Under the pieces are notes generated by a model. The model saw nothing but the letters and a program-made list of their open reading frames with translations. It made no database searches and was not told the DNA's origin. A stretch of DNA of 64,000 bases from contig JAHELV010000005.1 in NCBI GenBank assembly GCA_024644015.1, positions 13,297 through 77,296 of the forward strand, in the 5' to 3' direction. Shown here in pieces: positions 44,838 through 48,551 of this stretch. The DNA is from Nitriliruptorales bacterium (lineage in GTDB: Bacteria > Actinomycetota > Nitriliruptoria > Euzebyales > JAHELV01). Position numbers and translations under genes: made by a program. Positions within the stretch are counted from its first letter, which is position 1; every line of letters starts with the position of its first letter.

Positions 44838-45581
44838 CTACTTGAGGTCGGTCATGGTGGCCTGCACCACGGTGTTGGAGTCGTAGTGCCGTGTCGTGTG
44901 GTTGAACTGGCCGCCGCACGTGATCAGCGTCAGCACAGCGTCGCCGTTGCGGGTGAACAGTTCCTCGATCGGCAGCACCCGCTTGCGGTACATGGCCTGA
45001 TCGAAGACCTCGAAGGCCACTGTGGAGCCGTCGTCGAACTCGACGGCTGCGGTGTCACCTGGCCGCAATTCGTGGAGTGCGAAGAATGCTCCCGGCTTGC
45101 CGGCGTGGTCGACGTGGGCCGCAAGCACCGCGGAGCCCGCGCTGCCCGGTACGGAGCCCGACCGGTACCAGACGACCGTCGCTGGGTCGGGTGGCACGTC
45201 GAGCTGGCCGTCGGCGGAGCGCCCCCTCGCGACGACGGGCGCGTGAAGGTCGAGTGCGTCGATCCGCAGTGCCACCGGGCTGCGCGCGACATCTGCGAGC
45301 CGGGCCGAGCGGTGCGTGAAGCGCTGGCCATCGGCACCGGCGGGTTGACGCGCCACGATTGCGGTGTCGCGGGCGGGCACCGCGCCTCCCATGGATGCCG
45401 ACGCGGTGACCGCGGCGCTCTCCGCAACGTCCGAGCCAGTAGACGAGGGCTCGGCCCTGCGCTCGCGCAGCGCCTGGCTGACGGCCGGAGCGAGCGCGAG
45501 GCCGACGAGCAACCCGAGCAGCAGGGCGTACCGACGCACGCGCCGGGTTCGTGTCGGGGGCCCGTTCGTCCGCGTCGTCAC
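44838..45581 (-). CDS. class F sortase
   Basis: N-terminal signal anchor. The catalytic His is in VLAAHVDH, the Cys in LTLITCGG, and the Arg in TTRHYDSNTVV. Size and motif spacing fit class F. Confidence 0.85.
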   Translation of the reverse strand: MTTRTNGPPTRTRRVRRYALLLGLLVGLALAPAVSQALRERRAEPSSTGSDVAESAAVTASASMGGAVPARDTAIVARQPAGADGQRFTHRSARLADVARSPVALRIDALDLHAPVVARGRSADGQLDVPPDPATVVWYRSGSVPGSAGSAVLAAHVDHAGKPGAFFALHELRPGDTAAVEFDDGSTVAFEVFDQAMYRKRVLPIEELFTRNGDAVLTLITCGGQFNHTTRHYDSNTVVQATMTDLK

Positions 45582-45594
45582 GACGGCTCGGGTC

Positions 45595-46410
45595 CTAGTC
45601 GCCAGCCCGCGCCGTTGCGAGGGCGGCCCGCGCCGTGACAGCTGCGGTCAGCAGCGCGAGTGCGGCCGCCGCCCACGCCCACCACGGCATGAACGCCGTC
45701 GCCACGAGACCACTGTCGCCGGTTGGCACACCGACCGGCATTGTGGCTTCGCCGGTGTCGAGCCGCTGGCTCAGCCAGCCAAGGCTGTCGTTGTCCGCCG
45801 ACCCGATCAGATACACCGCAATCACGCTCTCGGGGTCCGCGTTGATGCGCGCGGGCGGCAGCAGTGGAGCGGAGGACGAGGCCTCGACCGTCGCGATGTC
45901 GTCGGCGCCGGGCTGCACGGTGCCGTCGCCCTCCTGACCGGGCTTCAGGCCCGTGACGACCGAGGTGGTGCCGAACGTGACATCGATCGCCGGCGCCATC
46001 GCGGTGTGTCGAACCACGACTCGCGCCGTGTCGGCGCCCGGTGCGTTGAATGCGTTGTCGAAGACCGAGATGGTCGGTTCGCCGTCTGCAGCGGGATGGA
46101 CCACAGCCGACAGGTTCGCGTCCGACGGCAGCTGCAGGGTCCCTTCGACGACCGGTGTGCTGTCAGGTGCGGCGTCTGCCTCGCGAACCTCCACGGTGTG
46201 CTCACCAGCGGGCAGCTGCGTCGGGTCCGTGGACCGTGCCGGCCTGAAGCCTTCCAGGATGAGATCTCCGTCGAGGTAGACATCGGCGAGCAGGCCACGG
46301 AACCCGTGGACCAACGTCACCGTGGCCGTGTCGGATTGTGCGGCGGCGCTGCCGGGCAGTACCAGGAACCACATCGCGAGCAGAACGAGTGCTGTTCGAC
46401 GCATGTGCAT
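45595..46410 (-). CDS. DUF4397 domain protein with C-terminal sorting-signal-like tail
   Basis: Signal peptide MHMRRTALVLLAMWFLVLPGSAAAQS. A DUF4397-like repeat pattern is present (VTLVHGF...ADVYLDG; VVVRHTAMAPAIDVTFG). The C-terminus is GVPTGDSG, then a hydrophobic stretch FMPWWAWAAAALALLTAAV, then TARAALATARAGD. Confidence 0.75.
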   Translation of the reverse strand: MHMRRTALVLLAMWFLVLPGSAAAQSDTATVTLVHGFRGLLADVYLDGDLILEGFRPARSTDPTQLPAGEHTVEVREADAAPDSTPVVEGTLQLPSDANLSAVVHPAADGEPTISVFDNAFNAPGADTARVVVRHTAMAPAIDVTFGTTSVVTGLKPGQEGDGTVQPGADDIATVEASSSAPLLPPARINADPESVIAVYLIGSADNDSLGWLSQRLDTGEATMPVGVPTGDSGLVATAFMPWWAWAAAALALLTAAVTARAALATARAGD

Positions 46411-46418
46411 TCCTTCGT

Positions 46419-48551
46419 CTAGACGGGCTGCGAGCTGGGCTCACGGTCCTCGGTCGATCGGGTGAACAGCGTCAGCACCTGGTCGCACACCCACGTGTCT
46501 GTGAGTTCCCGCTCGGGCTGCAACCAGCCAGCCTCGGCGGCGGTGACCAGCAGGCGTCGGGCCGCGTCGCCCGACACGGTCAAGCGGCGGGCCACGAGAT
46601 CTGCGTCGAGGATGGGCCGCGCCAGCGTGAGGTCGATCAGCGGGAGTACTCCGGCGTGGTCGGCGCGCTCCCGCCAGCGTTCTCGCAGGCCACCGAGCCG
46701 CTTCAGGCGGTCGGCGTTCTCGGCGGCTCCCTGTGCCACGCAGTCGCACAACAGCTGCAGCCACCGGTCACGTTGCGCGGCGTCGTGCAGGTCTGCATTG
46801 AGCGCTGCGCGGTAGCGCCGTGCCTCGTCGAGGAGCTGCGGGCTCAGCGTCAACACCGGGCGTGCGAGCCGCGCTGCCCGCATGATGTCGACGGCGGTCA
46901 CGGCCCGGGCGACAAGCTGGTCGTCGCGGCCATCCCGGTGTGAAAGGACCACGTGCTCGAGGCCGATCTCGACGAGCGGATTCAGTGCGCGCACCGGTGC
47001 GATGGGCCGCTGCGGGCCGGTGGTCCCGCTCGCCGCGCCACCGGTCAGCACCGCGTTGATCTCGACCACCGGCGGCGGTGCCGACCTGCGGCGGGCGGTG
47101 TGCTGCCAGCCGGTCGACAGCGCTGACGCGGCCCGGCGCACCAGCTCGACGTCGTCGGTGCGGTCGGTCTGCGACAGGTCGGCGACGAGCACGTCGTGCA
47201 AGGTGACCGCCCGCCCGCTCAGCGCGACGCTGGCACGCGCCTCGGTGAGGCGGAACATCTCATCGGGCACGCTGTCGGCCACCGCCCGCGAGGCCAGCGC
47301 GAGCTGGCGAAGACCGAGGTGCGCATGGGCGAGGGCCTCCCGCGTCTGCGGTGTCAACTTGGCGATCGGCCGGGTCGCACTCGTTGCGTGCCGCGGTGCC
47401 CTCGCCGTGCCTGAAGCGACTCGCGGCGGATCGTCGGGCGGCGGCTCGGGTCCGTGTCGAACCCGGCGCCGGAGCAGCTGGGTGCCTGCGATCAGCAGGG
47501 ACAACAACAGGACGATGACCGCCGCGGCCGAGAGCCATCGGGGCGCCGTTTCGCTGTCGGTCCCCGCTGGTTGCGCATCCGACGGCGGCGGCGCATCGGC
47601 CGCGACCGCAGCGTCGGGTTGCGCTCCAGCCGAATCGGTGTCGATCGGCCGCACGCTGTCGGGGTCGAGCACGACCGTGCGGGCCGGCACGTCCTCGCCC
47701 GCGACCGGGACCTCGAGCGTGAGCGTCTGCGCGGCCGCGTCGGGCGTCCCGATCTCGGCGCGGTACAGATTGCGGAGATCGTTCGCCATCTCATCGGTGG
47801 CCGGCAGGATCCCCGCCATCTCGTCGACGACGCTGACGGCGCCAGCCGTCCGCGGGCCGAGCAGGGTGTCCTCGCCGCCGGCGCCGACGCTGACGACGTA
47901 TGCCGTCGCGGTTTCCACCGGCAGGTCGTCAATCGGATTGATACGCCGATCCAGGTCCCGCCCGACGACGAGGAGCGCCGCGCGGTCCTGGGTGGACCCG
48001 GCAAGCAGCCGGGTCGCCTCGTCCACGGCGGCCCGGATGTCACCCTCGGAGTCCGGGCGCAGCTGTCTGATCTGGGCGATCGCCGGTCCGGGGACGGGCG
48101 CAGGCTGCATCGCGATGCCGTCCGCGCCGATGACGCGCATGGTGGCACCCGGGGGCAGATCGAGCGCGAGCTCGACGACGGCTCCCTGCAAGGTCCGCAG
48201 CTCGTCCGGCCCGAGCGTGGTGTCGACCACGACGGCGACCTCGACGTCCGTGGCGGAGAGCCGCTGCAGCCTGACCGGCTGCGGGACGCCGTCGACCGTC
48301 GCGACGATGTCGTCGCTGGTGAGGGTTTCCGTCACCAGCCGTGCTGGTGCCGCGAACAGCACGCGTGTCGGGTCACCGGCCTCGACTGCGAGGATTTCGA
48401 GCTGGTCGAGCGCGTCGGTGTCGACCAACGGGAGGCCGGTGGCGGGGGAGGCCCAGACCAGCATCGCTGCCAGCAGTGCGATCGCGACAGCAATGCGTTC
48501 CAGACGACCGACGACGCCCGGATGACGTCGTCGGTCAACGGTCAAAGACAA
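46419..48551 (-). CDS. bitopic membrane protein: vWA-like ectodomain (no MIDAS), TM, cytoplasmic Fic-like plus winged-helix region with degenerate Fic motif
   Basis: 710 aa with a TTG start and GAAGG upstream. Signal peptide spans aa 17-38. The vWA-like pattern is EVAVVVDTTLG...MRVIGADG...AALLVVGRDLD. A Pro/Asp/Ala linker follows. TM spans aa 339-360 (WLSAAAVIVLLLSLLIAGTQLL). Cytoplasmic region: TEARASVALSGRAVTLHDV (Fic_N-like), LEHVVLSHRDGRDDQLVAR (Fic position), LTLSPQLLDEARRYRAAL, and C-terminal LARPILDADLVARRLTVSGDAARRLLVTAAEAGWL (wHTH-like). Confidence 0.7.
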   Translation of the reverse strand: MSLTVDRRRHPGVVGRLERIAVAIALLAAMLVWASPATGLPLVDTDALDQLEILAVEAGDPTRVLFAAPARLVTETLTSDDIVATVDGVPQPVRLQRLSATDVEVAVVVDTTLGPDELRTLQGAVVELALDLPPGATMRVIGADGIAMQPAPVPGPAIAQIRQLRPDSEGDIRAAVDEATRLLAGSTQDRAALLVVGRDLDRRINPIDDLPVETATAYVVSVGAGGEDTLLGPRTAGAVSVVDEMAGILPATDEMANDLRNLYRAEIGTPDAAAQTLTLEVPVAGEDVPARTVVLDPDSVRPIDTDSAGAQPDAAVAADAPPPSDAQPAGTDSETAPRWLSAAAVIVLLLSLLIAGTQLLRRRVRHGPEPPPDDPPRVASGTARAPRHATSATRPIAKLTPQTREALAHAHLGLRQLALASRAVADSVPDEMFRLTEARASVALSGRAVTLHDVLVADLSQTDRTDDVELVRRAASALSTGWQHTARRRSAPPPVVEINAVLTGGAASGTTGPQRPIAPVRALNPLVEIGLEHVVLSHRDGRDDQLVARAVTAVDIMRAARLARPVLTLSPQLLDEARRYRAALNADLHDAAQRDRWLQLLCDCVAQGAAENADRLKRLGGLRERWRERADHAGVLPLIDLTLARPILDADLVARRLTVSGDAARRLLVTAAEAGWLQPERELTDTWVCDQVLTLFTRSTEDREPSSQPV

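Follow-up and report, generated by a model that had tools for sequence, protein, structure and literature searches.

The 64,000-nucleotide stretch of contig JAHELV010000005.1 from a Nitriliruptorales bacterium (hereafter the window) carries at positions 46419–48551 a gene for a protein of 710 residues. The question raised by this locus is whether twelve of these residues, HRDGRDDQLVAR (aa 538–549, exactly 46905–46940), are what remains of a Fic active site, and what a protein with such a remnant might do. An earlier note, made from the sequence alone, had read this segment as a Fic signature retained only at its first His and last Arg, fused to a membrane anchor, and had predicted a non-AMPylating pseudoenzyme or else an enzyme with changed chemistry. 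We found that in this segment the catalytic loop of a class II, SoFic-type Fic module has decayed, and that the module is very probably catalytically dead. In the order of its parts the protein comprises a signal or anchor sequence, a vWA ectodomain, a transmembrane helix, a linker and the Fic module, which ends in a domain of the winged helix-turn-helix (wHTH) type. Coordinates refer to the window, and the gene with all its parts lies on the minus strand.

Tools that work on a single sequence nearly miss the homology to Fic proteins, and a family profile was needed to detect it. Pfam, which the earlier note had proposed as a check, gives no above-threshold match anywhere in the 710 residues, and the Fic family PF02661, far from reaching its gathering score, is not listed at E ≤ 10 for this protein or at E ≤ 1 in 21 family members, while Fic_N matches below threshold over aa 406–482 (about 17–19.5 bits versus a cut-off of 26.7). 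HTH_13 is likewise sub-threshold at aa 638–668 (21.5 versus 26.1 bits, E 2e-4 to 8e-4), as it is in 18 of 21 members, and the NCBIfam model RHE_PE00001 (NF040876) covers only the C-terminal ~65 residues with 20.5–21.5 bits versus a cut-off of 250 (E 1e-4 to 2e-4). A phmmer search of the PDB with the single sequence returned designed helical repeats only. A family profile of the C-terminal 319 residues, in contrast, found a protein adenylyltransferase in the PDB (9vjc, E 5.4e-8) and SoFic (E ~1e-5) with HMMER, and the PADLOC SoFic model matches aa 548–697 with E 9.8e-18, starting at helix α5. Aligned by hhalign to 25 canonical relatives, the same profile reached a probability of 99.9% (E 2.9e-32) over 304 columns, a span that opens with the N-terminal helix and closes with the final strand of the winged helix.

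The predicted structure leads to the same assignment. The AlphaFold2 (AF2) model of aa 392–710 has a mean predicted local distance difference test score (pLDDT) of 87 and a predicted template modelling score (pTM) of 0.88, and its best Foldseek match is SoFic (3zcn/3eqx, E 5e-10, template modelling score 0.73), followed by the Fic protein of Mycobacterium marinum (7cb8), 7xux, Fic2 of Coxiella burnetii (8cil) and eukaryotic FICD; the top 29 PDB matches of the module are all Fic proteins. Model, Foldseek and hhalign agree on the core helical fold of the Fic/Fido superfamily with the motif loop between α4 and α5. An exhaustive profile search of 1.84 billion representatives yielded 12 family clusters (E < 1e-30) and then, after a gap, about 1600 proteins from E 4e-19 onwards, typically 380–400 aa long and carrying HPFxDGNGRxGR and SSRIEGT motifs. 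The module is thereby shown by computation to be homologous to SoFic-type AMP-transferases and to have their fold; the outcome that would have spoken against the earlier note, no Fic homology or a motif placed elsewhere, is contradicted by the hhalign result, and the structure prediction it had also proposed as a check agrees with its assignment.

Three independent alignments (HMMER profile against 9vjc, MAFFT and hhalign) put the loop of aa 537–549 (46905–46943), which holds HRDGRDDQLVAR, at the position of the Fic motif. The model shows helix at 525–537, coil at 538–543 and helix at 544–559, the two helices being the counterparts of Fic α4 and α5. The motif position given in the earlier note is correct to within one residue. 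Its flanking landmarks hold as well: EARASVALSGRAVTLHDV upstream (EARASVALSG) lines up with EAxxSSxIEG, the region of the inhibitory helix in canonical relatives, and LTLSPQLLDEARRYRAAL downstream aligns with PxLxLSxxxxxxRxEYYxxL. For the residues inside the segment we turned to 34 homologs of identical full-length architecture and 45–66% identity, one of them named as belonging to a Euzebyales metagenome-assembled genome. The last Arg, R549, is present in 34 of 34 sequences, but the supposed first His is a coincidence, as position 538 is His in the window protein only (1/34) and is mostly Ala (16) or Gly (14).

The distance from H533, a conserved His of α4, to R549 is 16 residues versus 18 in canonical relatives, and this shortening by two residues makes the register within the loop ambiguous. 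MAFFT opens a gap before H538 and places it opposite the catalytic His, which is the register of the earlier note; hhalign pairs the catalytic His with R539 and the Pro with D540, and HMMER pairs the catalytic His with S537. We favor the hhalign register, because Pro is the commonest residue at position 540 (22/34) and His occurs at 539 in three sequences (P0002, P0016, P0017). In P0002 and P0016 this His is followed by Pro540, and the resulting ‘HP’ is likely a relic of the catalytic HP. The bare pattern H-x10-R is meaningless, and only homology could lend it significance. Its three occurrences in the Arg-rich protein (72 Arg) compare with 1.08 expected in shuffled sequences, which is not beyond chance, and of the 9 motif positions that are specified the ungapped register matches only 2.

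In no register are the catalytic His, the Pro-Phe pair, the Asp/Glu, the Gly-Asn-Gly or the first Arg conserved across the family. The motif HPFx[D/E]GN[G/K]R is gone, R549 is all that is kept of its extended form, and A548 and R549 (both 34/34) are the sole retained positions of the loop. Column counts thus bear out the loss of the anion-binding nest described in the earlier note and add the acidic residue and the first Arg to what is absent family-wide. In mean top-residue frequency, aa 537–545 is the least conserved segment of the domain (0.51, no invariant column), and on either side of it α4 (0.93) and α5 (0.92) are conserved more highly than any other segment of the protein. The loop is a trough of conservation, unlike in an enzyme, where it would be a peak. 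Every computational test supports the idea of a non-AMPylating pseudoenzyme, and the module would most fittingly be classed as a pseudoenzyme of Fic fold and SoFic ancestry.

Judged from the alignments, the decay goes beyond what the earlier note had seen: the losses extend to the Glu of the inhibitory helix, to a stretch of about 40 residues with the flap hairpin in it, and to the wHTH domain's basic wing. The remnant of the inhibitory helix (aa 431–446, 47214–47261), recognized by the sub-threshold Fic_N match and the alignments, reads E437-A-x-A-S441-x-A-L-S445-G446. Compared to the class II pattern [S/T]xxxE[G/N], the helix and S441 (invariant) are kept and the Glu is lost: its position is Ser445, which in the family is Ser in 21, Asp in 7 and Glu in 1 of 34 sequences, followed by G446 in 31 of 34. 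In place of the flap β-hairpin (…RxxqVWIG…AxFVPPpp…) and the helix after it we found a short loop of aa 504–518 (46998–47042), seen as a gap of ~40 residues against canonical relatives in both MAFFT and hhalign alignments and modeled with a pLDDT of 62–72. By alignment, then, there is no flap hairpin; the inhibitory-helix Ser lies 97–98 residues from the catalytic position, versus a median of 137 (range 127–141) in 19 canonical relatives.

The scaffold around these losses is retained. The RPIAKL segment and the N-terminal helix (aa 393–423, 47283–47375, hhalign columns 6–33) are the counterparts of the PxPLP segment and dimerization helix of SoFic-type proteins and belong to the most conserved parts of the protein (top-residue frequency 0.90 and 0.86, with 8 of 23 helix positions invariant). 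Helix α4, PVRALNPLVEIGLEH (aa 519–536, 46944–46997), includes the invariant H533, and helix α5, LVARAVTAVDIMRAARLARP (aa 546–565, 46857–46916), the invariant R549, R558 and R561. The C-terminal winged helix (46464–46655), indicated by the sub-threshold HTH_13 match and by hhalign, shows the pattern H-E-H-H-E in the DSSP assignment of the model; together with the predicted N-terminal dimerization helix it gives the module the architecture of SoFic-type proteins. Two other interpretations of these elements were rejected. RPIAKL is not a novel intramolecular pseudo-substrate lying on the flap, as a β-bridge between model residues 5 and 130 had suggested, since it aligns with the conserved PxPLP of canonical SoFic-type proteins. 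Nor has the catalytic site moved to H533, which aligns with the structural His of the canonical ‘aLxHYQFexIHPF’ and not with the catalytic His, and is conserved in canonical relatives too.

The family is rare, with 12 clusters at 50% identity, and its carriers are mostly uncultured Euzebyales-type actinobacteria. A pattern scan of 185,579 GTDB species genomes, which covers exact peptide patterns, found one locus, and the sources hold no annotation for any member except a precomputed PF11972 (HTH_13) assignment on P0010. P0044 (640 aa) and P0173 (679 aa), though both have diverged far, likewise consist of an ectodomain, a transmembrane helix, a degenerate Fic domain and a wHTH domain, and because the architecture recurs in them the fusion is older than the family. 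A search with P0044 found no relatives beyond P0044 itself; its wHTH domain retains a basic wing with a net charge of +4. In the family member P0037 (385 aa) the transmembrane helix comes first, followed by linker and dead Fic module without an ectodomain, which points either to a truncated gene call or to a natural variant that lacks this domain. Outside the family, soluble SoFic-type lineages with decayed motifs were also observed (P0084, P0111, P0117, P0124, P0165; for example SPIA-GSMAVAR and QPLRRGNPAVAR). As these lineages are unrelated to the family, catalysis appears to have been lost repeatedly and independently in the clade.

The reading frame of the whole gene is supported by the open reading frame (ORF) call, by the 34 full-length homologs and by the G+C content at the three codon positions (0.78/0.52/0.86), which marks it as a real gene of a high-GC organism. 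An ORF on the opposite strand (46882–48525, plus) and long ORFs in other frames overlap it, the longest with 547 aa; they have neither homologs nor domain support and are typical high-GC shadow ORFs. The protein begins with an Arg-rich segment and a hydrophobic stretch (aa 1–37, 48441–48551; hydropathy peak at aa ~20–40), predicted to be a signal peptide or signal anchor. For the identical database protein P0001 (681 aa) the start is placed 29 codons further downstream than the TTG at 48551, and this choice would delete (segment 48465–48551, minus strand) most of the N-terminal hydrophobic segment. The upstream TTG is supported by the TVDRR N-terminus that the homologs have in common. By hydropathy the membrane anchor claimed in the earlier note does precede the Fic domain: the strongest peak of the protein (2.41, for the sliding window starting at residue 342) corresponds to a transmembrane helix at aa ~338–362 (47466–47540), followed by RRRVRH on the cytoplasmic side. 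According to hydropathy and the positive-inside rule, the vWA domain would lie outside and the dead Fic module inside the cell. Between membrane helix and the invariant RPIAK segment runs a poorly conserved Pro/Ala-rich cytoplasmic linker (aa 363–392, 47376–47465), whose length varies among homologs from ~30 to more than 150 aa.

The ectodomain (aa 38–322, 47586–48440) is not recognized by Pfam, VWA_2 giving a weak match (E 0.083) in just 2 of 22 members. Its AF2 model (pLDDT 89.4, pTM 0.86) consists of a β-sandwich, a domain of vWA fold and another β-sandwich. Foldseek matched it to ArnB (8s05, E 4.5e-11) and a Catenulispora vWA protein (4fx5, E 1.1e-8), and also to ITIH1 and Sec23/24 trunk domains; there were 103 PDB matches at E ≤ 0.001, and all 50 listed are vWA-containing chains. 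Like Sulfolobus ArnB (8s05/5a8j) and 4fx5 (E 4.5e-11 to 5e-8), the ectodomain has a vWA fold flanked by β-sandwiches, yet sequence identity to such proteins is 11–14%. ArnB moreover is cytoplasmic and paired with an FHA protein, whereas the domain studied here is predicted to be extracytoplasmic and is fused to a dead Fic module. The DxSxS position of the metal ion-dependent adhesion site reads D110-T111-T112-L-G (in the region of aa 106–110, 48222–48236, minus strand), and with this motif degenerate and its last position variable in the family, the ectodomain is probably not a classical metal-dependent adhesin.

In the window and at loci L001, L002, L004 and L010 the gene order is Pyr_redox_2, rsgA, the gene, rmuC and ferredoxin, and L005 agrees with it by ORF positions. 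The order rsgA–gene–rmuC holds at all six loci with downstream context, that is the same five and, by ORF positions, L005; L003 ends at the gene. Vertical inheritance at a fixed position between rsgA and rmuC in Euzebyales-type actinobacteria is shown by computation. A defense-system or toxin-antitoxin context is ruled out by this conserved housekeeping synteny: in place of the active toxin and the defense or mobile context that characterize PADLOC's anti-phage SoFic, we found a dead motif in chromosomal synteny. No small regulator gene was noted at the rsgA–gene–rmuC loci. In the window, genes for a secreted DUF4397 protein (45595–46410, minus) and a sortase (44838–45581, minus) lie directly downstream of the gene, before rmuC, and the same trio occurs at the divergent locus L010 (3650–5364), with orthologs at 60% and 53% identity. 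The packing is tight, with an 8-nt gap in the window and a 4-bp overlap in L010. At its C-terminus the DUF4397 protein has a conserved PV(G/A)VPTG, then PWW, then a run of hydrophobic residues and an Arg-rich end, which together resemble a variant form of a cell-wall sorting signal for the neighboring sortase. A required functional coupling of the gene to this pair was rejected, as the pair is absent from L001, L002, L004 and, by ORF positions, L005. At locus L008 an OmpR-type response regulator (1155–1883, plus; Trans_reg_C E 2e-25, weak receiver domain) is located 45 bp upstream of P0044 (1928–3850), a single case that hints at a signaling context for P0044.

What such a protein does can be approached through the parts that have been kept. 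We consider it probable (roughly 0.7) that a dead Fic module is held at the membrane and works by binding partners and not by modifying them. The protein would AMPylate nothing. It may be a transmembrane adaptor or receptor, a reading to which we give about even odds, whose ectodomain would bind an envelope or external partner. By analogy with SoFic, the module would probably dimerize through its N-terminal helix. That helix forms the dimer interface of SoFic and runs on into the inhibitory helix (bioRxiv 10.64898/2026.07.09.737422), and its near-total conservation here suggests that dimerization has been kept. A cytoplasmic partner could then be held at or recruited to the membrane via the conserved surfaces of α4, α5 and the inhibitory helix. 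Such non-catalytic recruitment would have its closest mechanistic precedent in Bartonella BepC, where the FIC domain brings GEF-H1 to the plasma membrane and no catalysis is involved (PMC7842960). Several points weigh against this reading. The invariant R549 (the γ-phosphate Arg), R558 and R561 may permit residual binding of phosphate or nucleotide; the topology, with vWA outside and Fic inside, is read from hydropathy and charge; and the gene context offers no candidate partner, as synteny extends over the entire region in this narrow clade and adjacency to rsgA and rmuC therefore tells little about partners.

A more specific form of the receptor idea, which we regard as unlikely, would have a ligand or envelope protein that binds the vWA ectodomain alter the dimerization of the pseudo-Fic module, which would in turn sequester or release a target of the ancestral type, perhaps the neighboring RsgA, at the membrane without modifying it. 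SoFic itself targets a translational GTPase such as EF-Tu. If true, this would amount to pseudoenzyme-based signaling from the envelope to translation or ribosome biogenesis and to an undescribed class of transmembrane receptor. Alternatively, the protein might be a membrane-tethered transcription factor comparable to ToxR or CadC, in which the dead Fic module serves as dimerization scaffold, the wHTH domain binds DNA and the vWA domain exerts control. SoFic-type wHTH domains do bind DNA as dimers, as in CccR, C. burnetii Fic2 and SoFic at its own promoter (PMC9755527, PMC10628234), the wHTH fold is retained, a long flexible linker follows the transmembrane helix, and P0044, with its basic wing, adjoins an OmpR-type regulator. 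Charge, wing and conservation of the domain make this quite unlikely, however. Its net charge is −3 in the window protein and −3.0 on average in the family (over 64 residues, range +6 to −8), while canonical relatives range from −5 to +5 and mostly from +2 to +5, two being listed at 0 and −5, and the other degenerate branch from +2 to +5. Its recognition helix varies and is acidic in many cases (PEDEAAAVAAKAEQVG, for instance); compared with active relatives, the wing has 4 fewer residues and no basic GRGGR turn; and conservation of the domain, at 0.59, does not come near that of the helices of the Fic core.

Two further readings build on invariant residues of α4 and α5. A non-catalytic sensor that binds nucleotide or phosphate through R549 and the α5 arginines, with occupancy as the signal, would account for the invariant stripe of Arg on α5, and R549 is the counterpart of the motif Arg by which active Fic enzymes contact the γ-phosphate (PMC3667792). 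We consider such a sensor improbable, since the Gly-Asn-Gly-Arg nest for the α- and β-phosphates is gone, the loop is variable and the flap region that helps to enclose the nucleotide is deleted. Very improbable is an enzyme with changed chemistry, the alternative put forward by the earlier note, in which H533, R549, R558 and R561 would form a new site. All four residues are invariant, and small changes in the Fic motif are known to switch the chemistry, as in the kinase Doc or in phosphocholination by AnkX (PMC4454073). Yet H533 is nearly invariant in the alignment of canonical relatives as well, which makes it an ancestral residue with a structural role and no new recruit; the active-site loop is the least constrained segment of the domain; and the acidic metal ligand, the anion nest and the flap are all missing. 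At the other extreme, the C-terminal module could be a functionless relic that decays neutrally behind an ectodomain that alone matters. The combined loss of catalytic motif, flap, inhibitory Glu and basic wing might suggest this, but it is hardly credible in view of the conservation, which is higher in the C-terminal domain than in the ectodomain (63% versus 55% mean column identity) and includes 59 invariant columns among the 34 sequences and helices at 0.86–0.93; the C-terminal domain, moreover, keeps its full length in every complete homolog. By these values the scaffold at the cytoplasmic end of this membrane protein is evidently under strong purifying selection.

The nearest relatives are the SoFic-type class II Fic proteins, namely SoFic (3eqx/3zcn), E. 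coli ‘Sofic’ (9vjc), CccR of Yersinia pseudotuberculosis, C. burnetii Fic2 (8cil) and the M. marinum protein (7cb8). With these the module shares the sequence of elements along about 300 residues, namely the N-terminal PxP segment, a long N-terminal helix, inhibitory helix, core helices, PxLxLSxxxxxxRxxY, a long helix and the wHTH domain. It differs from them in having lost HPFx[D/E]GN[G/K]R except for the last Arg, in the replacement of the inhibitory Glu by Ser, in the absence of ~40 residues including the flap, in its acidic wHTH domain with short wing, in its location behind a transmembrane helix and a vWA ectodomain, and in its non-defense chromosomal synteny. Its proposed role would be shared with BepC and AvrB, in which the Fic/Fido fold serves as a protein-binding module, in BepC bringing the partner to the membrane. 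AvrB also lacks the Fic motif (PMC2686095) and is a precedent for motif loss. In BepC, however, the flap and nearly all of the motif (HxFxKGNGRxxR) remain, and AvrB, which is a secreted effector, has an inserted lobe; neither protein belongs to the SoFic/wHTH type, and neither is integral to the membrane with an ectodomain attached. The DUF1612/RHE_PE00001 proteins (Rhizobium Y4CF), with HTH_13 at the C-terminus, likewise combine a ‘remote fic-like’ N-terminus with a winged helix (PMC2686095), but these are soluble proteobacterial proteins of ~370 aa, and the window protein scores far below their cut-offs. A literature search found no description of the architecture vWA–transmembrane helix–dead Fic.

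The locus also holds a caution, in that a His seen in a single sequence is no proof of motif retention. Practical value is limited for now, with carriers mostly uncultured and no candidate partner in the gene context. Fic enzymes have been studied nearly always as catalysts, be it as toxins, effectors, defense proteins or regulators of BiP, and non-catalytic use of the Fic fold is documented for very few proteins, BepC and AvrB. Here a whole vertically inherited family appears to have shed every catalytic and regulatory part of a SoFic-type enzyme while its scaffold stayed under strong constraint and became linked, through a membrane helix, to a vWA ectodomain. With it comes a domain architecture that had no annotation, and the family would offer a natural test case for what the Fic scaffold does once its chemistry has been removed.

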